The notes beneath the pieces are model-generated. The model was not told the origin of the DNA. It was given only the letters and a program-made list of their open reading frames with translations, and did no database searches. Made by a program: the position numbers and the translations under genes. 64,000 nt of DNA from Escherichia coli (GTDB taxonomy: Bacteria; Pseudomonadota; Gammaproteobacteria; Enterobacterales; Enterobacteriaceae), in assembly GCF_003018115.1 (NCBI RefSeq), contig NZ_CP027457.1. One strand, 5' to 3'. Numbering within the stretch: the first letter of the stretch is position 1; the number at the start of each line of letters is the position of its first letter. Positions 2,872 through 35,267 of this stretch are shown here, in pieces.

Positions 2872-3510
2872 TTAGAGGTTCTTGATTACTTTGACTGCAC
2901 GTCCTAGGACTTCCACATCATCTACAGAACATTCAAATGAAGTGTCATCTTGGTTAACTACTATTTTGTTTCCGGGTATGCGCGCAATTTTGACGATGCT
3001 TTTAACTCCGTCCATATCGACTAACCAGAAGCCATTACTGACTTGTTTAACAGACGTATCCACTACAAAGCTATCATTAGCTGTTTTAACAAATAAAGCG
3101 TTGGATGAGTCACCATCGAGCAGGCTGCTATCAAGAAGAATTTCATCACTTGGCTGCAGTTCGCCGTTCTTCAGTTCAACACGTTTGATGCTAGGAGCGA
3201 CGATCTTAGAAAGTGGTCTTACAGTGACAGGAGGTTCATTTTTGAGATTTGTTTCTTCGTTCTCACACGCATACATATCTCCTTGACCAGTAGCCAGCCA
3301 TAGAAGGGAAACTCCTGTTTCAAGGGCACATTGGATTACCCATTCGGCAGGAAAGCTATCCCTTAAGTATCTGTTAGCCATAGTGCTTTTTGATACTTCC
3401 AGATGTTCGCAGAGCTGCTGTCGTGAGCTGAAGTTGTAAGCCTTAATAAGCCTATTAATCGCATCGCGCCCACCACTATCATTCCCCGCCTTGATTAAAC
3501 TCATAATCAA
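2872..3510 (-). CDS. cI: phage 186 CI-type immunity repressor (N-terminal HTH, C-terminal oligomerisation domain)
   Basis: 212-aa ORF divergent from apl/cII; position next to int; HTH-like SRQQLCEHLEVSKSTMANRYL. Confidence 0.75.
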   Translation of the reverse strand: MIMSLIKAGNDSGGRDAINRLIKAYNFSSRQQLCEHLEVSKSTMANRYLRDSFPAEWVIQCALETGVSLLWLATGQGDMYACENEETNLKNEPPVTVRPLSKIVAPSIKRVELKNGELQPSDEILLDSSLLDGDSSNALFVKTANDSFVVDTSVKQVSNGFWLVDMDGVKSIVKIARIPGNKIVVNQDDTSFECSVDDVEVLGRAVKVIKNL

Positions 3511-3620
3511 ACCTCTTGATGTATATAAAAAGTGATCCTAATATCCATCCATGGTTTGAAAAGCAAAACCAAACCACATAAAACAAGATAAAACGAAACC
3601 AAACTAAGAGATACTGCACT
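3511..3620. promoter_or_regulatory. lysis-lysogeny switch region with face-to-face promoters/operators between cI and apl; candidate rightward promoter TTGAAA(3556-3561)-17 bp-TAAAAC(3579-3584)
   Basis: AT-rich 110-bp divergent intergenic region between repressor and excisionase/Cox-like gene. Confidence 0.35.
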
Positions 3621-3863
3621 ATGAGTACTGATATTTCAATTCGTGTACCAAAAGAGATGGCTACGCCTGCAGAGTTCGCGGAATGGGAAGGTATCTCCCG
3701 CGGCTCCGTGTATCAAAAAATTCACCATGGTCAGCTTGCTAAATACATGGTCAAGAAAGAAAAAAACAAAGGCCGCGTAAGCCTGCGTTATTTAATGTAC
3801 AAAACCGATCAGGTCCGTGAATCCCTCGGTCATTCCAACTTCCGCGTCATTGTTGGTAAGTAA
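3621..3863 (+). CDS. apl: Apl/Cox-like excisionase and transcriptional regulator
   Basis: 80-aa ORF first in the early rightward operon, opposite cI; HTH-like EFAEWEGISRGSVYQKIHHGQL. Confidence 0.7.
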   Translation: MSTDISIRVPKEMATPAEFAEWEGISRGSVYQKIHHGQLAKYMVKKEKNKGRVSLRYLMYKTDQVRESLGHSNFRVIVGK

Positions 3864-3895
3864 GTTCAATTATGAGAACTTTCTAAGGGGGTAGC

Positions 3896-4405
3896 ATGTT
3901 TGATTATAAGATTTCCAAACACCCGCATTTTGATGAAGCCTGTAGAGCTTTTGCACTTCGTCACAATATGGCGAAGCTGGCAGAACGTGCAGGAATGAAT
4001 GTCCAGACTTTGCGAAACAAACTCAACCCAGATCAACCGCATCAGCTAAATGCGCCAGAAATCTGGCTGCTTACCGATCTGACTGAAGATTCAACGCTGA
4101 TAGATGGTTTTCTGGCACAGATTCACTGCCTGCCATGTGTACCGATTAATGAGGTAGCAAAAGAGAAACTGCCGCATTACGTCATGAGTGCAACTGCAGA
4201 GATCGGGCGTGTTGCTGCTGGTGCGGTATCTGGCGATGTAAAAACCAGTGCAGGTCGTCGTGATGCTATCAGCAGCATTAACTCTGTAACACGACTGATG
4301 GCGCTGGCTGCTGTTTCATTGCAGGCCCGTTTACAGGCTAACCCGGCGATGGCGAGTGCAGTTGATACCATGACTGGCCTTGGTGCTTCATTCGGTTTGC
4401 TGTGA
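3896..4405 (+). CDS. cII: CII-like lysogeny establishment activator (186 CII-type)
   Basis: 169-aa ORF directly after apl with RBS; HTH near N-terminus (MNVQTLRNKLN); 186-like order. Confidence 0.65.
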   Translation: MFDYKISKHPHFDEACRAFALRHNMAKLAERAGMNVQTLRNKLNPDQPHQLNAPEIWLLTDLTEDSTLIDGFLAQIHCLPCVPINEVAKEKLPHYVMSATAEIGRVAAGAVSGDVKTSAGRRDAISSINSVTRLMALAAVSLQARLQANPAMASAVDTMTGLGASFGLL

Positions 4406-4412
4406 GGTGCTT

Positions 4413-4613
4413 ATGCTTACGAAAGAACCATCATTTGCATCACTGCTGGTTAAACAAAGCCCGGCAATGCACTACGGTCACGGCTGGATCATGGGTGAGG
4501 ATGGTAAACGCTGGCATCCGTGCCGTTCACAAGATGAATTGCTGGCAGAACTATCTACGAAAAAACGGGGGAACAAATGGCTATTGAAGGCGCTGCGGCG
4601 ACTGTTCCATTAA
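4413..4613 (+). CDS. hypothetical early protein (186 fil position)
   Basis: ATG at 4413 preceded by GAGGTG; 66 codons; early operon. Confidence 0.45.
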   Translation: MLTKEPSFASLLVKQSPAMHYGHGWIMGEDGKRWHPCRSQDELLAELSTKKRGNKWLLKALRRLFH

Positions 4614-4918
4614 GCCCCGGTGAACGCCTGAATGGACTTAATCATATTGCGGAGTTAAGGGCGAAAGTTTTTGGTCTTAATATTGAGTCAGAGCTTGAGC
4701 GGTTTATTAAAGATATGCGTGATCCACGGGATATTAATAGCGAACAAAATAAACGGGCACTGGCTGCCATATTCTTTATGGCAAAAATTCCAGCTGAACG
4801 TCATAGCATCAGCATTAATGAGCTGACCACTGACGAAAAGCGGGAGTTGATTAAAGCAATGAATCATTTTCGTGCAGTGGTGAGCTTATTTCCCAGACGG
4901 TTAACCATGCCGAATTAA
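4577..4918 (+). CDS. hypothetical early protein (186 dhr position)
   Basis: 113-aa ORF with RBS, in early operon. Confidence 0.5.
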   Translation: MAIEGAAATVPLSPGERLNGLNHIAELRAKVFGLNIESELERFIKDMRDPRDINSEQNKRALAAIFFMAKIPAERHSISINELTTDEKRELIKAMNHFRAVVSLFPRRLTMPN

Positions 4919-4985
4919 TCAACTAATGAAATTAATGGCGTAAACCCGCCGGGCATCCCTTTATCTAAATTCAGGAGAATTGATT

Positions 4986-5219
4986 ATGCGTAATATTGAA
5001 ACCCTCACGACTAAAACCGGACCGGATGATGCAGGTCTTAATCTTTTACTGACAGAGGCCCGTCTTGAAGAATGCCGGGCAAGGGCTGAAGCAATGGCAG
5101 CTCGCCTTGATAGTCTGGCGTGTCATATTACATCCCGCCAGCTAAACCACGTCGAAGCGGCAGAACTGCTGCGTGTGACTGCTGAAGCAATCCAGAACGA
5201 AGCGCAGGAGATCCACTAA
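4986..5219 (+). CDS. hypothetical early protein
   Basis: ATG at 4986 preceded by CAGGAG; stop overlaps next start (TAATG). Confidence 0.5.
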   Translation: MRNIETLTTKTGPDDAGLNLLLTEARLEECRARAEAMAARLDSLACHITSRQLNHVEAAELLRVTAEAIQNEAQEIH

Positions 5220-5446
5220 TGGCTGATGCAATGGATCTCGTACAGCAGCGCGTTGAAGAAGAACGCCAGCGCCATATCCGTGCTGCCCGTGCCAGAACGC
5301 CGGGCGTGTCACGCGTGCTTTGCATTGAATGTGAAGCGCCAATTCCGCCAGCAAGACGCCGCGCCATTCCGGGAGTGCAGCTTTGCATTACCTGCCAGGA
5401 AATAGCAGAGCTGAAAGGCAAACATTACAACGGAGGTGCTGTATGA
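5219..5446 (+). CDS. TraR/DksA-family C4 zinc-finger protein
   Basis: CxxC...CxxC pattern (CIECEAPIPPARRRAIPGVQLCITCQ); 75 aa; translationally coupled to neighbours. Confidence 0.7.
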   Translation: MADAMDLVQQRVEEERQRHIRAARARTPGVSRVLCIECEAPIPPARRRAIPGVQLCITCQEIAELKGKHYNGGAV

Positions 5447-6300
5447 GCACCATCCTGAAATGGGCGGGTAATAAAACCGCCGTTATGTCCGAACTGAAAA
5501 AATACCTTCCTGCTGGCCCGCGACTGGTTGAACCTTTCGCGGGTTCCTGTGCAGTGATGATGGAGACGGATTACCCAAGCTATCTGGTAGCGGATATTAA
5601 TCCTGATTTAATCAACCTCTATAAAAAGGTTGCTGCTGATTGTGAGGTGTTTATATCTCGCGCCAGAATTTTGTTTGAGGAAGCAAACAGTGAGCTGGCT
5701 TATTACAACATAAGGCAGGAGTTTAATTACTCAACTGAAATTACTGATTTCATGAAATCGGTATATTTCCTGTATCTCAATCGTCATGGTTACCGTGGGT
5801 TATGTCGCTATAACAAGAGCGGGCATTTCAACATTCCCTACGGTAATTATAAAAAACCGTATTTCCCTGAAAAAGAAATTCGCGCATTTGCAGAGAAAGC
5901 CCAGCGGGCAACGTTTATCTGCGCCAGCTTTGATGAAACGCTGGCGATGTTGAAGGCGGGGGATGTGGTGTATTGCGATCCGCCGTATGACGGTACGTTT
6001 TCCGGCTATCACACTGATGGCTTCACTGAGGATGACCAGTATCACCTGGCATCCGTTCTTGAACATCGATCATCTGAAGGTCATCCGGTCATTGTTTCTA
6101 ACAGTGACACATCCCTGATTCGTTCGCTGTATCGCAATTTCACTCACCACTACATCAAGGCAAAACGCAGCATCGGCGTGTCGGCTGGCGAGAGTAAATC
6201 TGCAACAGAAATCATTGCTGTTTCCGGGGCGCGCTGCTGGGTGGGATTTGATCCTTCGCGTGGCGTGGATAGTTCTGCTGTGTACGAGGTGCGTGTATGA
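5443..6300 (+). CDS. dam: DNA adenine methyltransferase (Dam-like, probable GATC N6-adenine MTase), orphan
   Basis: Motif [10 protein letters not shown] and motif IV DPPY; strong similarity pattern to E. coli Dam ([24 protein letters not shown]); ATG 5443 with GGAGGTG RBS. Confidence 0.85.
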
Positions 6301-8711
6301 GTCATGACGATATGAGCAACTCTAGCGGCTTTAACGAGGCCGCAGCAGCATTTTCATGGAACGGCCCGAAAAAGGCCATTAACCCTTATCTGGACCCGGC
6401 GGAAGTTGCGCCGGAGTCTGCACTTTCAAACATGATCACTCTGTACGCTGCCGATAACGAGCAGGAACAGCTGCGCCGCGATGCACTGAGTGAGCAGGTC
6501 TGGGAGCGTTATTTCTTTAATGAATCCCGTGATCCTGTCCAGCGCGAAATGGAGCAGGATAAGCTCATTAGCCGCGCAAAGCTTGCGCATGAGCAGCAGC
6601 GTTTTAACCCGGACATGGTCATTCTGGCAGATGTCAGCGCCCAGCCTACCCACATCAGCAAGCCGCTGATGCAACGTATCGAATACTTCAGTAGCCTGGG
6701 CAGGCCAAAGGCTTATTCCTGCTATTTGCGTGAGACGATTAAGCCATGTCTGGAGCGACTGGATTGTGTACGCGACAGTCAGCTATCCGCTTCTTTCCGT
6801 TTTATGGCAAGCCATCAAGGGCTTGAGGGCCTGCTGATCCTGCCTGAAATGAGTCAGGATCAGGTAAAACGCCTGTCCACCCTGGTAGCAGCGCATATGA
6901 GCATGTGTCTTGAGGTCGCTTGTGGTGATTTGTATGCCACCGATGACGTTAAGCCAGAAGAAATCCGCAAGGCATGGGAAAAGGTGGCAGCGGAAACCCT
7001 GCGTCTGGATGTTATCCCGCCTGCGTTTGAGAAACTTCGTCGGAAAAGAAACCGCCGCAAACCAGTGCCCTATGAACTCATACCGGGTTCGATGGCACGT
7101 ATGCTTTGCGCCGACTGGTGGTATCGAAAATTGTGGAAGATGCGTTGCGAATGGCGGGAAGAGCAGTTGCGTGCTGTCTGTCTGGTCAGCAAAAAAGCAT
7201 CTCCCTATGTCAGCTATGAAGCAGTGACGCATAAACGTGAGCAGCGCCGCAAGTCGCTGGAGTTTTTCCGTTCTCATGAACTGGTGAACGAAGACGGAGA
7301 CACGCTGGATATGGAAGATGTGGTAAACGCCAGCAGCAGCAACCCGGCACATCGCCGAAATGAGATGATGGCCTGCGTTAAAGGTCTGGAGCTTATCGCG
7401 GAAATGCGTGGTGACTGCGCCGTTTTCTACACTATCACCTGTCCGTCACGTTTCCATTCCACGCTAAATAACGGCAGGCCCAACCCGACCTGGACAAATG
7501 CGACTGTAAGACAAAGCAGTGATTATCTGGTCGGCATGTTTGCTGCATTTCGTAAGGCGATGCACAAAGCCGGGTTGCGTTGGTATGGCGTGCGGGTGGC
7601 TGAGCCGCACCATGACGGTACTGTGCACTGGCATCTTATGTGCTTCATGCGTAAAAAAGACCGCCGCGCCATCACTGCATTACTGCGTAAGTTTGCCATC
7701 CGTGAAGACCGCGAGGAGCTGGGCAATAACACTGGGCCGCGCTTTAAGTCTGAGCTGATTAATCCGCGCAAAGGAACGCCGACAAGCTACATCGCGAAAT
7801 ATATCAGTAAGAACATTGACGGGCGTGGTCTGGCTGGCGAGATCAGCAAGGAAACGGGTAAATCTCTGCGTGATAACGCTGAATACGTGAATGCCTGGGC
7901 GTCTCTGCATCGTGTTCAGCAATTCCGCTTCTTTGGTATTCCGGGGCGTCAGACTTACCGTGAACTGCGATTGCTGGCTGGTCAGGCGGCAAGGCTACAG
8001 GGTGACAAAAAAGCAGGTGCGCCGGTACTGGATAACCCACGTCTTGATGCCATCCTGGCTGCTGCTGATGCTGGCTGTTTTGCGACCTACATCATGAAGC
8101 AGGGCGGCGTGCTGGTTCCCCGCAAATATCACCTTATCAGAACAGCTTATGAAATTAACGAAGAGCCGACCGCCTATGGCGATCACGGTATTCGTATTTA
8201 TGGCATCTGGTCACCCATTGCAGAGGGCAAGATCTGCACTCATGCAGTGAAGTGGAAAATGGTTAGTAAGGCCGTTGACGTTCAGGAGGCGGCAGCCGAC
8301 CAGGGCGCTTGCGCCCCTTGGACTCGTGGCAATAACTGTCCCCTTGCTGAAAATTTGAACCAACAAGGGAAAGACAAATCAGCTGATGGGGACTCCAGAA
8401 CGGATATTACCCGTATGAATGACAAGGAGTTGCACGATTACCTGCACAGTATGAGCAAAAAAGAGCGCCGGGAACTGGCTGCAAGGTTACGCCAGGTGAA
8501 ACCGAAACGGCGTAAAGACTACAAACAGCGAATTACAGACCATCAGCGACAGCAGCTCGTCTATGAACTGAAGTCCAGGGGATTTGATGGCAGCGAGAAA
8601 GAAGTCGATTTGCTCCTTCGCGGCGGCAGTATTCCGTCAGGAGCAGGCCTGCGTATCTTCTATCGGAACCAGCGTCTGAAGGAAGATGATAAGTGGCGGA
8701 ACCTGTATTAA
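6297..8711 (+). CDS. A: replication initiation endonuclease (P2 gpA-like rolling-circle initiator)
   Basis: 804-aa ORF at the end of the early operon; contains the gpA-family AKYISKN region and HWHLMCFM motif. Confidence 0.8.
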
Positions 8712-8805
8712 TTACGCGGGTTAACAATTCGTGCTCTTAATAATACCAGGCATATCAGGCCGATGAACGTAAAAAAACGTTTTACATCAGTAAGATTATT
8801 GTATA

Positions 8806-8821
8806 CTGTAAATATAAACAG
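8806..8821 (+). promoter_or_regulatory. LexA box (SOS operator) CTGTAAATATAAACAG
   Basis: Perfect CTG-N10-CAG with AT-rich centre about 45 bp upstream of the 8864 start; weaker second copy GTGGTTATGTATACAG at 8821..8836. Confidence 0.7.
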
Positions 8822-8863
8822 TGGTTATGTATACAGTATTGTTTTGGTGTCATAGGAGGAAAG

Positions 8864-9052
8864 ATGCAGGACTATTTTTTGGAGTCTTTGAAGCTCCAGC
8901 GCATTGATTTTTTTCTTAAGCTTGTAGCGGCTAGTGAGTGTAGTGATGAAGAGAAGGGGCTGGCTCTGCAGTGGGTTTCTGAATTGACTGATGAACTCAT
9001 GGCAAAAATCAGAAGCCACGAATACAACCGCTCAATGGATGTCATCAGCTGA
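8864..9052 (+). CDS. small SOS-inducible protein, possible Tum-like antirepressor
   Basis: 62-aa ORF with AGGAGG RBS directly downstream of the LexA box; 186-like position after gene A. Confidence 0.45.
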   Translation: MQDYFLESLKLQRIDFFLKLVAASECSDEEKGLALQWVSELTDELMAKIRSHEYNRSMDVIS

Positions 9053-9062
9053 GGTGACTTTT

Positions 9063-9296
9063 ATGCGCATTGAAATAATGATCGATAAAGAGCAGAAGAT
9101 TAGCCAGTCTACCCTGGACGCCCTTGAATCCGAGCTTTACCGCAATCTGCGCCCCCTGTATCCCAAAACGGTAATTCGCATTCGCAAAGGTAGCTCTAAC
9201 GGTGTGGAACTAACCGGACTGCAACTGGATGAAGAAAGAAAACAAGTGATGAAAATTATGCAGAAGGTGTGGGAGGACGACAGCTGGCTGCATTAA
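9063..9296 (+). CDS. DinI-family protein
   Basis: 77 aa from ATG 9063 (RBS GAGGTG); MRIEIMIDKEQ...WEDDSWLH resembles DinI (MRIEVTI...W..ADDW). Confidence 0.7.
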   Translation: MRIEIMIDKEQKISQSTLDALESELYRNLRPLYPKTVIRIRKGSSNGVELTGLQLDEERKQVMKIMQKVWEDDSWLH

Positions 9297-9488
9297 GAAA
9301 TGTTGCCCCCAGGAGGATTCATTCTGATGGGGGCTAGTTTGGGCAATGAGTGAAATAAGGCGTAAGGTGGGCGGTTATTTTGATAAGTGATCGTCCGCTT
9401 TGTGTCAGAAGCAGAAGCGGGAGTGTCTGAGACTCTCTAAAAGTTGATGATTCACTTACAAAACCATTTTCCTGATGGATGCTTACAC

Positions 9489-9824: not shown

Positions 9825-10165
9825 GGAAACTCCTTTTATTGGTGTTTGCTATTTGAATAAAAATACGCCAAACAGAGTGTTAACTGTGAATATGGAAAGA
9901 ATCGTTGTAAGTACCCCACTTAGGTGTCCCATTCTATTTTAGAGGTTCTCGTGCATATGGATTATGTTATCTGAAAGTTAACTTCCGCTTCCCGTTCACA
10001 GCGAACATTCATCTTTGTAAACCCGTATGATCCGTTTTTCAAGTGGCCATTCAGATACGGATTTTCACTTCCTTGACAGTGCATGACTATGCTGCATGAA
10101 ATCGCATGATCGATTGAGGATCGTCTTTGCTCAGATCCGCCAGAACTGGCGGGCTTTTGCTCATG

Positions 10166-10181
10166 TCATGCATGTGCATGA
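10166..10181. repeat. perfect palindrome TCATGCA-TG-TGCATGA beside cos; related GCATGA direct repeats at 10081, 10094, 10104
   Basis: Read directly; candidate terminase or regulator binding site. Confidence 0.4.
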
Positions 10182-10203
10182 AAACCACTGCATAAAGCGG
10201 GCA

Positions 10204-10222
10204 GGCGTGGCGGGGATACGAG
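10204..10222. other. candidate cos cohesive-end site GGCGTGGCGGGGATACGAG
   Basis: First 13 nt match the P2/186 cohesive-end sequence as recalled (GGCG(A/T)GGCGGGGAAAGCA...); lies between the right-end tum region and Q as in P2/186. Confidence 0.4.
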
Positions 10223-10356: not shown

Positions 10357-12138
10357 ATGGCTGAACTATTACCGCAAACAACTTCTATACAAACTATTTA
10401 TTCATGGTTTACTGAAGGTAAGATATTTGTTAATAGACGTTATCAACGAAAATTAGTTTGGACTGCAATAGAGAAACAAAAATTAATTGAATCCATTCAA
10501 AAAAAATATCCAATTCCTGCAGTTCTTCTCGCGGAAAGGGAAAATGATCCTGGCACATATGAAATAATTGATGGCCTACAAAGATTACATGCAATAATGT
10601 CTTTCATCGAAACAGGATATGAATCACTTGATGGAAAACGTTTTAATCTGGACGCTTTTCCCACAGCGAAAAATCGAGCGGATGAAGGTAAGTTTGTTGC
10701 AGTGAAAGCTGATAATCTTTTAAGTCAGCGTGAGGTTACTCAGTTATTGGATTATTCTCTTGCAATGTCCATTATGCGTAATGCGACTGAGAACGAAATA
10801 AATGATGTTTTTGATAGAATTAATACATACGGGCATAGACTTAGTGATCAAGAAAGGCGCCAGGCTGGTATACAAAATAAATTTTCAAATATGGTTAGGG
10901 ATATTGCCTGTTCTATCAGGGGGGATGTATCTGACGACATATTGCTTTTAGAGCAAATGCCGTCTATTAGCATTGATTTGCCACTAACTAAACATGGTTA
11001 CCAAATTCAGTCGGAAGAAGTATTTTGGGTAAAACATGGGATCTTACGTTCAACAGACCTTCGTGACAGTATGGATGAGCAATGCATTGCAGATATAGCA
11101 GCTTGTATTGTTGGAGGTAAGTTAATAGATCGTTCCAAAGATGCGCTTGATCAGATTTATAATAATGAAGATGAAGAGTATAGTCGTATTAGCTCTGCTA
11201 TTAATGTTTATGGTGAAGGAAAATTTGCAGAAGAGTTTAAATTCTGCATCCAGGAAATAACAAAAGTATGTAATAGTGACGGTGAAATTAAACTCAGGGA
11301 TTTAATCTTTACTAAACGTACTACAAATGCTTTCCCAGCCATATTTGCTGTGTTATTTATTGCTTTTCATGAATTACTCATTAAAGAAAATAAGAAGATT
11401 AATAATTATAAAGGTGTAAAAGACAATCTTAATAATATAGTCACTCGACTAGATACTAAAAGATCTGCTACTGGTGGGGAAGAGAGAAGAAAGAATATTA
11501 ATTCTATCATAGGCTTGATTAAAGATAACTTTATTGATAGCGCCGATAGCAGTCATATCTATAATTCTCACAATACGGTGGATATTGAGGATATTTTACG
11601 AAGATCTGAAATAGAGCTTGCAAATTATGAACTGAAACAGGGTTTGTTGATGTTAGGCGGAGAGCGAACTATTGATGATGGCATTCATGAGAAAATATTC
11701 TCCACAATTTGTGCTATTGCTAACATCGGTAAAGGTAACAAGAACGGTGTAGTTGGTAAGTTATTGCTTGGTGTAACAGATAAACCAAGTGATACAAGTA
11801 GAGTAAAAGAGCTTGATGATATAGATGCACATGTAGTTGGTGAGAGAAGTGTTGTTGGTGTTAAAAGAGAAGCTATTAAACTCGGCATATCAATGGAAGA
11901 ATATTATAGACGTTTTTGCGATGAGTTGAAAAAATCTGCTTTGAGTGAGCCTCTTAAATCACAAGTGGTGAGTTTGATTGACTATAATGACTTTTATGGT
12001 TATGGAGTTATAGTTATTACAATTCCACTTCTAGCATCTTATTCTAGTTATGATGGGGATATTTATTATCGTGCTGGCGATAATACCGTAAAAGCAACAG
12101 TTATCGAAGCAGCAGATATTGCAACACGTTTTAAATGA
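10357..12138 (+). CDS. DUF262 (ParB/GmrS-like NTPase/nuclease-fold) N-domain fused to Schlafen/AlbA_2-like C-domain; candidate anti-phage defence protein
   Basis: 593 aa; N-terminal RRYQRKLVW and IIDGLQRLHA motifs (DUF262 signature); C-terminal ELANYELKQ...ICAIANIGKGNKNGVVGKLLLGVTD...IYYRAGDNT resembles AlbA_2/Schlafen core; no H-N-H/DUF1524 motif; AT-rich; between cos and portal gene. Confidence 0.7.
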   Translation: MAELLPQTTSIQTIYSWFTEGKIFVNRRYQRKLVWTAIEKQKLIESIQKKYPIPAVLLAERENDPGTYEIIDGLQRLHAIMSFIETGYESLDGKRFNLDAFPTAKNRADEGKFVAVKADNLLSQREVTQLLDYSLAMSIMRNATENEINDVFDRINTYGHRLSDQERRQAGIQNKFSNMVRDIACSIRGDVSDDILLLEQMPSISIDLPLTKHGYQIQSEEVFWVKHGILRSTDLRDSMDEQCIADIAACIVGGKLIDRSKDALDQIYNNEDEEYSRISSAINVYGEGKFAEEFKFCIQEITKVCNSDGEIKLRDLIFTKRTTNAFPAIFAVLFIAFHELLIKENKKINNYKGVKDNLNNIVTRLDTKRSATGGEERRKNINSIIGLIKDNFIDSADSSHIYNSHNTVDIEDILRRSEIELANYELKQGLLMLGGERTIDDGIHEKIFSTICAIANIGKGNKNGVVGKLLLGVTDKPSDTSRVKELDDIDAHVVGERSVVGVKREAIKLGISMEEYYRRFCDELKKSALSEPLKSQVVSLIDYNDFYGYGVIVITIPLLASYSSYDGDIYYRAGDNTVKATVIEAADIATRFK

Positions 12139-24835: not shown

Positions 24836-24855
24836 TTTTATTCAGGGTGATTTAT

Positions 24856-25299
24856 ATGAACGAATATGTTTATAGCGCAAGGCATAATGCTTTTTTCCCT
24901 GTGGATATGATTGATAAATATAAATCAGAGGGATGGGATTTATCAGACGCTAAGGAAGTAAATCAAAATATTATCAGTGAGTTTATGGCTGAACCGCCAC
25001 AAGGAAAAATCCGTATTGCCGGAGATGATGGGCTGCCTGCGTGGGCAGATATTCCTCCACCCACGCATGAAGAGCTTATTGAAATTACTGAATCAGAAAG
25101 ACAGCTACTAATTAACCAGGCCAACGAATACATGAACAGTAAGCAATGGCCCGGTAAAGCCGCTATTGGTCGTCTGAAAGGTGAGGAACTGGCGCAATAT
25201 AATTTGTGGCTGGATTATCTGGACGCACTGGAGCTGATCGATACTTCCGGTGCGCCAGATATTGAATGGCCTACGCCTCCGGCAGTTCAGGCCAGATGA
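24856..25299 (+). CDS. tail fibre assembly protein (Tfa, gpG/U-like)
   Basis: Follows the fibre gene in current orientation. Confidence 0.75.
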   Translation: MNEYVYSARHNAFFPVDMIDKYKSEGWDLSDAKEVNQNIISEFMAEPPQGKIRIAGDDGLPAWADIPPPTHEELIEITESERQLLINQANEYMNSKQWPGKAAIGRLKGEELAQYNLWLDYLDALELIDTSGAPDIEWPTPPAVQAR

Positions 25300-25873
25300 C
25301 ATCCGGCGCTGTGCTGGTATCTGTTGCCGTCACCGCGTCAATGTAATCCAGCACAGCGTTAAGGCGGGTTGTTTCTGCCTGCGTCAGCTTCCGTCCGGCC
25401 TGTAATTTCAGTTGAATCAGACTGATGGAGGCCATTGCAGTATCAATCAGCGACTGGCGCTGTGCTTCTGCTGCATCTACTGCTGCGCCGTGCTGTGCCT
25501 TGGTATCTGTCACCCATTTCTCACCATTCCATTCATCGTATGGCGTTAACGGGGCGATAGTGGTTGTATTTTCAGGATAATCACCCGGAGCTGTGATTTC
25601 TTTCGATTCTCCTGTTTCGATGCTATAGACGATTTCACCGCGATGATCTGGCACATATTCCCATGAATTTAAATTCACAGAACGACAGATTGCATAACCA
25701 ACCTTATGTATGCCTGGTGCATCAAGACAGGAACATGCCGGAATACCGACACCAACAGCAAGATATTCAGTTGACGTGGAAATATATTCCCGTGTTTCAC
25801 CATCGTAGTTATAAACGGTAACATCCCCTGCCTTTGTTGCAATAAGGTCACTATTTAATATTGCTTTATGCAT
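25271..25873 (-). CDS. alternative tail fibre assembly protein (Tfa')
   Basis: 200 aa on opposite strand within invertible segment; C-terminal ...DTSTAPDVIWPELPEA parallels Tfa ...DTSGAPDIEWPTPPA. Confidence 0.75.
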   Translation of the reverse strand: MHKAILNSDLIATKAGDVTVYNYDGETREYISTSTEYLAVGVGIPACSCLDAPGIHKVGYAICRSVNLNSWEYVPDHRGEIVYSIETGESKEITAPGDYPENTTTIAPLTPYDEWNGEKWVTDTKAQHGAAVDAAEAQRQSLIDTAMASISLIQLKLQAGRKLTQAETTRLNAVLDYIDAVTATDTSTAPDVIWPELPEA

Positions 25874-26383: not shown

Positions 26384-26438
26384 TGCAGAGATAATGGCTA
26401 ACTGGCATCATCCCCGGTTTTTATTCAGGGGATTGATC

Positions 26439-27005
26439 ATGCTTATTGGCTATGTACGCGTGTCAACAAATGACCAGAACACCGATTTGCAACGTAATGC
26501 ACTGAACTGCGCGGGATGTGAGCGGATTTTTGAGGACAAAATCAGTGGCACTAAGTCCGACAGACCGGGGCTTAAAAAACTGCTCAGGACACTATCGGCA
26601 GGTGACACACTGGTTGTCTGGAAGCTGGACAGGTTGGGGCGCAGTATGCAGCATCTTGTTACGCTGATAGAAGAGTTGCGCCAGCGTGGCGTGAATTTCC
26701 GAAGCCTGACTGACAGTATTGATACCAGTACCCCAATGGGCCGTTTCTTTTTTCATGTCATGGGTGCCCTGGCTGAAATGGAACGCGAACTGATAGTTGA
26801 ACGTACCAGGGCAGGGCTGGCTGCAGCTCGTGCCAAAGGCAGAGTAGGTGGGCGTCGTCCTAAGTTGACCACCGAACAGTGGGCACAGATTGGACGTTTA
26901 CTCGAGGCCGGAGAATCAAGACAGCGTATTGCACTGATTTTTGATGTGGGCGTTTCTACCATTTATAGAAAATTTCCGGTGAATGAGAGCAATGAATCGC
27001 CCTGA
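26439..27005 (+). CDS. serine DNA invertase (Gin/Hin/Cin/Pin family)
   Basis: MLIGYVRVSTNDQNTDLQRNAL (catalytic Ser in VRVST) and C-terminal HTH; 188 aa. Confidence 0.9.
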   Translation: MLIGYVRVSTNDQNTDLQRNALNCAGCERIFEDKISGTKSDRPGLKKLLRTLSAGDTLVVWKLDRLGRSMQHLVTLIEELRQRGVNFRSLTDSIDTSTPMGRFFFHVMGALAEMERELIVERTRAGLAAARAKGRVGGRRPKLTTEQWAQIGRLLEAGESRQRIALIFDVGVSTIYRKFPVNESNESP

Positions 27006-34846: not shown

Positions 34847-34904
34847 TTTGCCGCCACTACCAAAGAAAAAGGGGCTACGCTTTCACGTAACCCCTTGATT
34901 TATT

Positions 34905-35267
34905 TGGTGGAGCTGGCGGGAGTTGAACCCGCGTCCGAAATTCCTACATCCTCGGTACTACATGCTTAGTCAGTCTTTACATTCGCTTGCCAGCTGCGGA
35001 CGGACACGCCACTAACAAACTAGCCTGATTAAGTTTTAACGCTTCAACCCCTGGCAGGGCTTCCACGCGATCTCTTTTGGGTTTGACCTCTCTTGATCCC
35101 CGTCCTAAGAGCGGAGGCTAGGGAGAGAGGGCTCTAAGCAGGTTATTAAGCTGCTAAAGCGTAGTTTTCGTCGTTTGCGACTATTTTTTGCGGCTTTTTA
35201 CGAGGCCAACCGCCCCTCGGCATGCACCTTGGGTTTCGCAAATCCCGTCGAATCCAGAATCAGCCCC
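34905..35267 (-). ncRNA. ssrA: tmRNA (SsrA), complete; 3' 45 nt form attR
   Basis: Reverse complement matches the E. coli tmRNA from GGGGCTGATTCTGGATTCGACGGG to ...GGTTCAACTCCCGCCAGCTCCACCA, including the tag-encoding region. Confidence 0.95.

Follow-up and report, generated by a model that had tools for sequence, protein, structure and literature searches.

Why should a prophage carry a gene for a DNA adenine methylase (Dam) in a host that is expected to have a dam gene of its own? This question is raised by a 64,000-nucleotide stretch of Escherichia coli DNA (NCBI RefSeq assembly GCF_003018115.1, contig NZ_CP027457.1; "the window" below means this whole stretch), where the early operon of a prophage related to phages 186 and Fels-2 holds a dam gene at 5443–6300 on the + strand. 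The gene call itself adds little, and the points of interest are the difference in GATC avoidance between phages that have such a gene and relatives that do not, and a pair of GATC sites beside cos. The answer that we consider likely is that the gene encodes an orphan, GATC-specific Dam of the early lytic phase, which adds Dam capacity so that the GATC sites of the phage become fully methylated.

The phage Dam and its relatives

The dam gene is predicted, from profile matches and motifs, to encode a 285-amino-acid Dam-family (D12 class) N6-adenine DNA methyltransferase with specificity for GATC. Its stop codon is at 6298–6300. The mechanical open reading frame (ORF) runs from a TTG at 5383, but we place the biological start at ATG 5443 because a GGAGG lies 6 nt upstream, because this ATG shares an ATGA with the stop codon of the upstream ORF, and because all homologues share the N-terminal beginning that it gives. 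The original prediction had seen Dam-family motifs in this ORF, and they are indeed present: EPFAGSCAV occupies residues 30–38 and DPPY occupies residues 179–182, i.e., the S-adenosylmethionine-binding motif I near the N terminus followed by the catalytic motif IV, both invariant across 16 homologues. The profile and structure searches agree with the motifs. Pfam PF02086 (D12-class N6-adenine methyltransferase) matches with an E value of 2.3e-75 and 254 bits versus a cut-off of 22, and does so end to end (residues 7–244 on profile positions 1–253), NCBIfam TIGR00571 'dam' gives 318.3 bits versus a cut-off of 114.85, and the E. coli Dam structures 2G1P/4GOL are matched with E ~3e-73. The ratio of nonsynonymous to synonymous substitution rates (dN/dS) is 0.17 in comparison with a 94%-identical homologue (allele), by which measure the gene is under purifying selection. 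With a family match far beyond chance, ORF 5443–6300 is, as judged from these comparisons, a real and intact gene for a stand-alone Dam-type methylase. An AlphaFold model built on a 17-sequence alignment is of mediocre confidence (mean predicted local distance difference test score, pLDDT, of 68.7) and suggests that the C-terminal tail and the DNA-contact loops are flexible.

Next, we compared the phage Dam with the chromosomal E. coli Dam (EcoDam), to which it is 47% identical over 257 residues. The two proteins belong to the same family and fold class, have the same motif I and DPPY, and are both orphans. In EcoDam, R124 reads the fourth base pair of the target, L122 and P134 the third, and K9 and Y138 the first, while Y119 intercalates (PMC4417163). 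These GATC-reading residues, K9, Y119, L122, R124, P134, and Y138, correspond to K6, Y117, L120, R122, P132, and Y136 in the phage Dam, and all six are invariant in the 16 phage-type homologues (70–94% identity). Judged by residue identity, GATC methylase activity is very probable for the phage Dam. Three consistent differences separate the phage family from EcoDam: N120, which makes a hydrogen bond to a base in EcoDam, is an arginine (R118) throughout the family, the 5-residue loop that follows DPPY in EcoDam is deleted, and there is a conserved 25-residue C-terminal tail (of the type W-G-D-G-D-S-V-EVRA) that EcoDam does not have. In the model this tail has a pLDDT below 35 and is probably disordered. 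The phage Dam scores 287.8 bits against the housekeeping-Dam equivalog NF008152, which has a cut-off of 441, and because of this score we take it to be a Dam-family enzyme and not an orthologue of the chromosomal Dam; its gene also lies in a prophage at ssrA and does not adjoin damX or rpe, as it would in the chromosomal locus damX-dam-rpe. EcoDam is constitutive and chromosomal, whereas the phage Dam is phage-borne and expected to be expressed in the lytic phase.

Several other GATC methylases resemble the phage Dam at a greater distance. The Dam of phages P1 and P7 (Dmt) is a D12 Dam homologue from a temperate phage and an example of a phage that supplies its own GATC methylation, but it is much more distant, with 36% identity over 258 residues. 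Like the host dam, P1 dam triggers retron-Sen2 (bioRxiv 10.1101/2020.06.22.160242). The Dam of T4 and T2 belongs to this Pfam family too and is likewise an orphan GATC methylase from a phage, although it is only ~22% identical, comes from a virulent phage with hydroxymethylcytosine DNA, and differs in its DNA-recognition hairpin. M1.DpnII (PDB 2DPM; E 4e-33) shares the domain and the GATC target with the phage Dam, but M1.DpnII and other D12 methylases linked to restriction-modification are paired with a restriction endonuclease, while the phage Dam is unpaired.

The original prediction had described the gene as phage-encoded, embedded in the early operon, and without a cognate restriction gene, and our analysis bears out these points. 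The dam gene lies between a TraR/DksA-like zinc-finger gene directly upstream (5219–5446, + strand; Pfam PF01258) and the gene for the prophage's gpA rolling-circle replication endonuclease downstream (6297–8711, + strand; Pfam PF05840, E 6e-128). No restriction gene was found adjoining dam or elsewhere in the prophage by Pfam and PADLOC searches of the window-specific ORFs, and the PGAP annotation of near-identical prophages contains no restriction enzyme. The best PADLOC model for the phage Dam is 'orphan methyltransferase' (E 1e-110). We considered as a restriction partner a 593-amino-acid DUF262/GmrSD_N protein, encoded at 10357–12138 on the + strand and matched by PADLOC to NsnA (E 8e-31) and PD-T4-2_A, and rejected it because its gene lies 4 kb from dam, in a cargo slot of variable content that separates cos from the portal gene, and is much less common than dam, with only 24 genomes holding 80% or more of the window's first 20 kb versus 1239 with dam. 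In related prophages this slot holds retrons Ec67/Ec86, AIPR, AAA-ATPase, or other genes, and by its sequence the DUF262/GmrSD_N gene is a candidate anti-phage defence gene. The host's own dam, which had been placed elsewhere, lies outside the window, where we find no second D12 match; it is therefore not visible in this DNA, but its presence is a safe assumption since dam is core in E. coli, the K-12 gene being found in 5425 of 5426 complete genomes.

GATC density with and without dam

Evidence on what the phage Dam may do comes from the GATC sites themselves. The GATC density of the prophage is 3.4/kb versus 4.0/kb in the host flank, a figure that is uninformative alone and becomes informative only against dam-less relatives. 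In the five genomes with dam (the window, ECE228, FDAARGOS_1287, RE2010, and Fels-2; dam in 5/5), the observed/expected (O/E) ratio of GATC is 0.85–0.89, whereas in four dam-less genomes (186, P2, Wphi, and PSP3; dam in 0/4) it is 0.12–0.24. The same difference is seen in a larger sample of 240 IMG/VR loci, each comprising a gpA gene and as much as 10 kb on either side of it. The 80 Fels-2-type loci carry dam in 77 cases and have a median GATC O/E of 0.93 (0.78–1.11), while the medians are 0.31 for the 80 186-type loci and 0.23 for the 80 P2-type loci, none of which (0/80 in each case) carries dam. One Fels-2-type locus (L071) is truncated at the slot upstream of A, and dam is thus kept in 77 of the 79 that include this slot. 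Of the 16 four-base palindromes, only one is more depleted than GATC in the dam-less genomes. The difference can also be followed in single homologous late genes: the capsid gene has 7, 9, and 6 GATC sites in phages with dam versus 0, 1, and 0 in dam-less phages, and the sheath gene has 6, 7, and 6 versus 0, 0, and 0. Phages with dam do not avoid GATC, and their dam-less cousins are depleted 4- to 8-fold.

In PMC5014478, which discusses McClelland 1984 and Deschavanne and Radman 1991, GATC is described as counter-selected in enterobacteriophages, with fast-replicating phage DNA poorly methylated by a limiting host Dam and exposed to MutH damage. In bioRxiv 10.1101/2020.06.22.160242, host Dam is said to be rate-limiting for high-copy DNA, and phage Dam is presented as an anti-restriction factor. 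The contrast in GATC density fits this picture of host Dam and MutH, and a phage with its own Dam would be expected to escape the penalty on GATC. The comparison of phages with and without dam inside one family thus serves as a natural experiment; it supports a host Dam/MutH penalty on under-methylated phage GATC sites, and it suggests that a phage-borne Dam removes that penalty.

Expression and role of the phage Dam

The position of dam suggests when it would be made. Its start and the stop of the TraR/DksA gene overlap, as noted above, and the ATG of gpA overlaps the dam stop in the same way, as ATGA, with the Shine-Dalgarno sequence of gene A, GAGGTG, encoded within the last codons of the dam tail (E-V-R). 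According to the phage 186 record, promoter pR is repressed by CI and Apl and drives apl, cII, fil, dhr, a DUF2732 ORF, a DksA-like ORF, three non-essential ORFs, and A, and translation of the A protein appears to need translation to the end of the preceding ORF (orf84). The dam gene fills the same slot as the three ORFs of 186 between the DksA-like gene and A. In other relatives the slot before A holds a small ORF (P2 and Wphi) or orf35 (PsP3), and the TraR/DksA-like neighbour is common to 186, P2, Fels-2, RE2010, and E. coli HS. A putative early lytic promoter pR, TTGATG-17-TAATAT, can be read at 3516–3544 on the + strand in the cI-apl intergenic region, its position assigned by analogy with 186, and dam lies 1.9 kb inside the operon whose 186 counterpart is repressed by CI. 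By this analogy, dam is expected to be expressed in step with the replication initiator when the phage infects or is induced, and to be repressed in the resting lysogen, because its slot belongs to a 186-like, CI-repressed pR operon. A strict consensus scan of 3400–9400 gave no promoter-like site on the + strand, a weak negative given that the putative pR was also missed. In a methylome study, prophage methyltransferases were often transcriptionally silent in lysogens (PMC4659465). The proposal that a second Dam alters methylation dynamics in the lysogen thus finds no support here, given the CI-repressed operon expected from 186 and the absence of an internal promoter in that weak scan.

The putative pR itself has a GATC at 3534, in the spacer next to the -10 element, which is conserved in L007 and in four IMG/VR loci that share the immunity region, and in this it is unlike the pR of 186, which has no GATC. 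We also considered whether M.EcoMIV, a prophage Dam homologue of the ST131 strain EC958 that was silent by reverse transcription PCR, is this gene, and rejected the identification: three regions of EC958 were examined, a P2-like prophage was found at serS, and its early region is without dam, so that M.EcoMIV would lie in another prophage. Papers on Salmonella prophages, on Serratia, and on the sigma-54 regulon contained no functional data on the phage dam.

From these observations we propose the following course of events. When the CI-repressed early promoter is released, dam would be transcribed with the early lytic operon, and translational coupling to its two neighbours, the TraR/DksA gene before it and replication gene A after it, would mean that Dam is made as rolling-circle replication starts and not in the resting lysogen. 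Where host Dam is limiting on rapidly replicating DNA, the phage Dam would supply extra capacity, such that the GATC sites of replicating and packaged phage DNA could become fully methylated. Full methylation would spare the phage DNA the penalties that fall on unmethylated or hemimethylated GATC, namely MutH cleavage and SeqA binding. As a further, non-exclusive benefit, packaged DNA would resist GATC-cleaving, methylation-sensitive restriction enzymes in the next host. The GATC specificity, the timing of expression, and the selective benefit of the phage Dam are all parts of this scheme that we infer. Since dam is a lytic-operon gene whose expression would be tied to that of the replication initiator, any methylome differences would be expected after induction and not in resting lysogens. 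The gene may also be both a benefit and a liability to the phage, as excess Dam can trigger retron abortive-infection systems.

Several points weigh against this interpretation. The GATC contrast is confounded with phylogeny, as the three clades amount effectively to one or two independent contrasts. L063 and L087, two loci of the Fels-2 type, are without dam yet have normal GATC density, which may reflect recent loss of the gene, and a P2-like prophage of EC958 without a D12 dam has an intermediate GATC O/E of 0.59. At the level of the enzyme, the change of N120 to arginine and the deleted post-DPPY loop may mean that kinetics or fidelity differ from those of EcoDam. The genes of 186 that occupy the equivalent slot are annotated as non-essential in the phage 186 record. 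Finally, the integrase gene of this prophage is frameshifted, and dam may thus be rarely used in this strain. The EC958 prophage mentioned here is the one at serS (L005 20100–50000, and L006), and it carries ParM and plasmid-stability genes.

Four other roles have to be weighed against the supply of lytic Dam capacity. One is that the phage Dam was selected solely as an anti-restriction device against GATC-cleaving, methylation-sensitive Type II enzymes of the MboI/DpnII type, which we regard as possible but doubtful. Phage Dam has been described in this way (bioRxiv 10.1101/2020.06.22.160242), and the spread of the family over many Enterobacterales genera and its orphan architecture, typical of phage self-protection, are consistent with such a role. 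Anti-restriction alone, however, leaves the 4- to 8-fold purge of GATC in the dam-less cousins unexplained, and that purge is classically ascribed to host Dam and MutH and not to restriction (PMC5014478). The hosts are also a difficulty for the anti-restriction role. As all the hosts listed here are presumably Dam+, most methylation of the progeny would be in place already. An anti-restriction role is in any case compatible with the favoured supply of Dam capacity. Another role would be that of a lysogenic-conversion epigenetic factor, with Dam expressed in the lysogen and shifting host GATC methylation, gene expression, or mutation rate. Excess Dam does have phenotypes, including a mutator effect (PMC5014478) and the triggering of retron-Sen2 (bioRxiv 10.1101/2020.06.22.160242), and the GATC in the putative pR spacer is conserved in the four loci that share the switch region. 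We nonetheless find this role rather improbable, as dam lies deep in an operon that is CI-repressed in 186, the weak scan for + strand promoters found none, silence is common among prophage methyltransferases in lysogens (PMC4659465), the host dam is core, and the GATC density of the host flank is ordinary.

The remaining two roles concern the cos region and the slot before gene A. The cos region, at 10079–10222 on the + strand, matches 186 cos and contains GCAT repeats, a stem-loop, and the cos core GGCGTGGCGGGGA at ~10204. Just left of the core are four GATC sites within 106 bp (10029, 10108, 10119, and 10134), and this cos-adjacent cluster is the only one in the prophage with at least three GATC sites within 100 bp. 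The 75 unique Fels-2-type cos regions that were compared average 2.7 GATC per 162 bp versus ~0.55 expected, and the two sites of a GATC pair 11 bp apart are present in 70 and 73 of the 75. Packaging at P1 pac is reportedly regulated through methylated GATC-containing repeats (Sternberg and Coulby 1990). Dam methylation of the pair beside cos could by this analogy regulate recognition or cleavage by terminase, and both the wide retention of the cluster and pair among Fels-2-type relatives and the persistence of both GATCs in L087, where the spacer between them differs, would fit such control. We judge it unlikely, since the whole cos region is highly conserved and the GATC sites are not conserved above that background, such a cluster would arise by chance somewhere in 34 kb with P ~0.34–0.43, the cos regions of 186, PSP3, and P2 have the same GCAT repeats, stem-loop, and cos core with 0–1 GATC and no pair, and two relatives have no GATC in the cos region at all. 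The pair is a lead only, and any function is putative. A bolder joint claim carries a similarly small chance: that the gain of dam freed the Felsduovirus-type branch from the GATC purge, and that the GATC pair, ~85–100 bp from the cos cut, puts the recognition or cleavage of cos, or else the binding of SeqA to it, under the control of methylation by the phage Dam. If true, this would be the counterpart in a cos phage of control at P1 pac, and acquisition of dam would have changed both the evolution of the phage genome and its handling. As for the slot before A, it might need any translated ORF for coupling, with dam as one of several interchangeable and dispensable fillers whose enzymatic role is little selected. 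The occupants of this slot in 186 (three non-essential ORFs), PsP3 (orf35), and P2 and Wphi (one small ORF), the dependence of 186 A on translation to the end of orf84, and the two Fels-2-type loci without dam are all in line with a passenger gene. The dN/dS of 0.17, the invariance of catalytic and DNA-contact residues in homologues of 70–94% identity, and the retention of dam in 77 of 79 slot-containing loci argue the other way, and together with a GATC-density contrast that is hard to reconcile with a passenger they make this last role highly improbable. The supply of Dam capacity in lytic growth remains the reading that we prefer.

The prophage and the spread of its dam

As judged from its boundaries and gene content, the element that carries dam is a 34.3-kb P2-family prophage of the 186/Fels-2 type (Felsduovirus-like), inserted at ssrA. 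At its left boundary, attL (662–707), 46 bp of the ssrA 3′ end recur as a perfect direct repeat, identical at 46/46 positions by local blastn to attR (34904–34949), which overlaps the 3′ end of the tmRNA gene ssrA itself (34905–35267, - strand). Beyond the right boundary, the flank shows 99.3% identity to E. coli chromosomes that carry recN, clpB, and ffh. From the left, the prophage genes are a 348-amino-acid ORF, the integrase, and a 186-type CI, followed rightward by an Apl-like ORF, CII, Fil, DUF5347, DUF2732, TraR/DksA, dam, gpA, a small ORF, and a DinI/Tum-like ORF, and the late genes are of P2 type. The 186-type CI repressor (2872–3510, - strand) was identified by Pfam Phage_CI_repr and Phage_CI_C, its role taken from the 186 record. 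The early operon starts with an Apl/Cox-like ORF (3621–3863, + strand), with the gene order of 186 and Fels-2, and continues with CII (3896–4405, + strand; Pfam Phage_CP76) and Fil (4380–4613, + strand; Pfam Phage_186_Fil).

The dam gene is already known, as a member of a widespread and annotated family first reported in the retron-Ec67 prophage. Of 5426 complete E. coli genomes, 1239 contain its DNA, with at least 80% of the gene covered in 1231 of the 1239, and the DNA is also present in 56 phage records. The exact protein occurs on 135 contigs under the name DNA adenine methylase, and homologues of 70–94% identity occur in Escherichia, Salmonella, Klebsiella, Enterobacter, Citrobacter, Edwardsiella, Cronobacter, and others. 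Fels-2 (STM2730), RE2010, E. coli HS (DuoHS prophage), ECE228, FDAARGOS_1287, and K. pneumoniae Kp52145 have the same TraR-dam-A order, with lengths of 228 bp for TraR/DksA, 858 bp for dam, and 2415–2430 bp for gpA; the Klebsiella prophages with this order include the one amplified in Kp52145. The phage Dam is 95% identical to the protein of RE2010, 94% to that of E. coli HS, and 73% to Fels-2 STM2730, and the Fels-2 record names the HS protein 'retron EC67 DNA adenine methylase'. In PMC7826664, Hsu, Inouye and Inouye 1990 are credited with the report of a Dam ORF in retron-Ec67, a 34-kb element that is a prophage related to 186. Relative to the Dam genes of Fels-2, HS, and retron-Ec67, the gene described here has only allelic differences; it sits in a prophage at ssrA with a frameshifted integrase and, in the cos-portal slot, a different cargo gene (DUF262). 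The retron-Ec67 Dam ORF, as published in 1990, reportedly had 285 residues and ~44% identity to E. coli Dam. In protein databases, the 90%-identity cluster that holds the phage Dam has an 804-amino-acid gpA as its representative and mixes Dam and gpA proteins, and five entries (P0024, P0025, P0078, P0088, and P0117) have Dam fused to gpA or to a gpD-like domain; such fusions probably come from prophage copies with frameshifts or rearrangements, which would chain the clustering.

Four further features of the prophage were observed. The integrase (1829–2868, - strand) is split into an N-terminal part of 175 residues (2341–2868) and a catalytic part of 174 residues (1829–2353), with a frameshift near 2390–2420, and a related prophage has an intact integrase of 346 residues; the frameshift may make the prophage excision-defective or may be a sequencing error. 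The 348-amino-acid ORF (793–1839, - strand) that separates attL from the integrase has a hydrophobic N terminus and a weak PADLOC match to '2TM effector' (E 2e-4), with no match in Pfam. Its slot holds other hypothetical genes in relatives, and it may be a moron or defence cargo. Downstream of gpA, a DinI-like ORF (8991–9296, + strand) takes the position of 186 tum and PsP3 tumB, which by analogy suggests SOS-inducible antirepressor control of the prophage. Among the late genes, two tail-fibre assembly genes (24847–25299, + strand, and 25271–25873, - strand) are opposed beside a Gin/Cin-type serine invertase (26394–27005), and the segment 24847–27005 looks like an invertible host-range segment, as in Fels-2.

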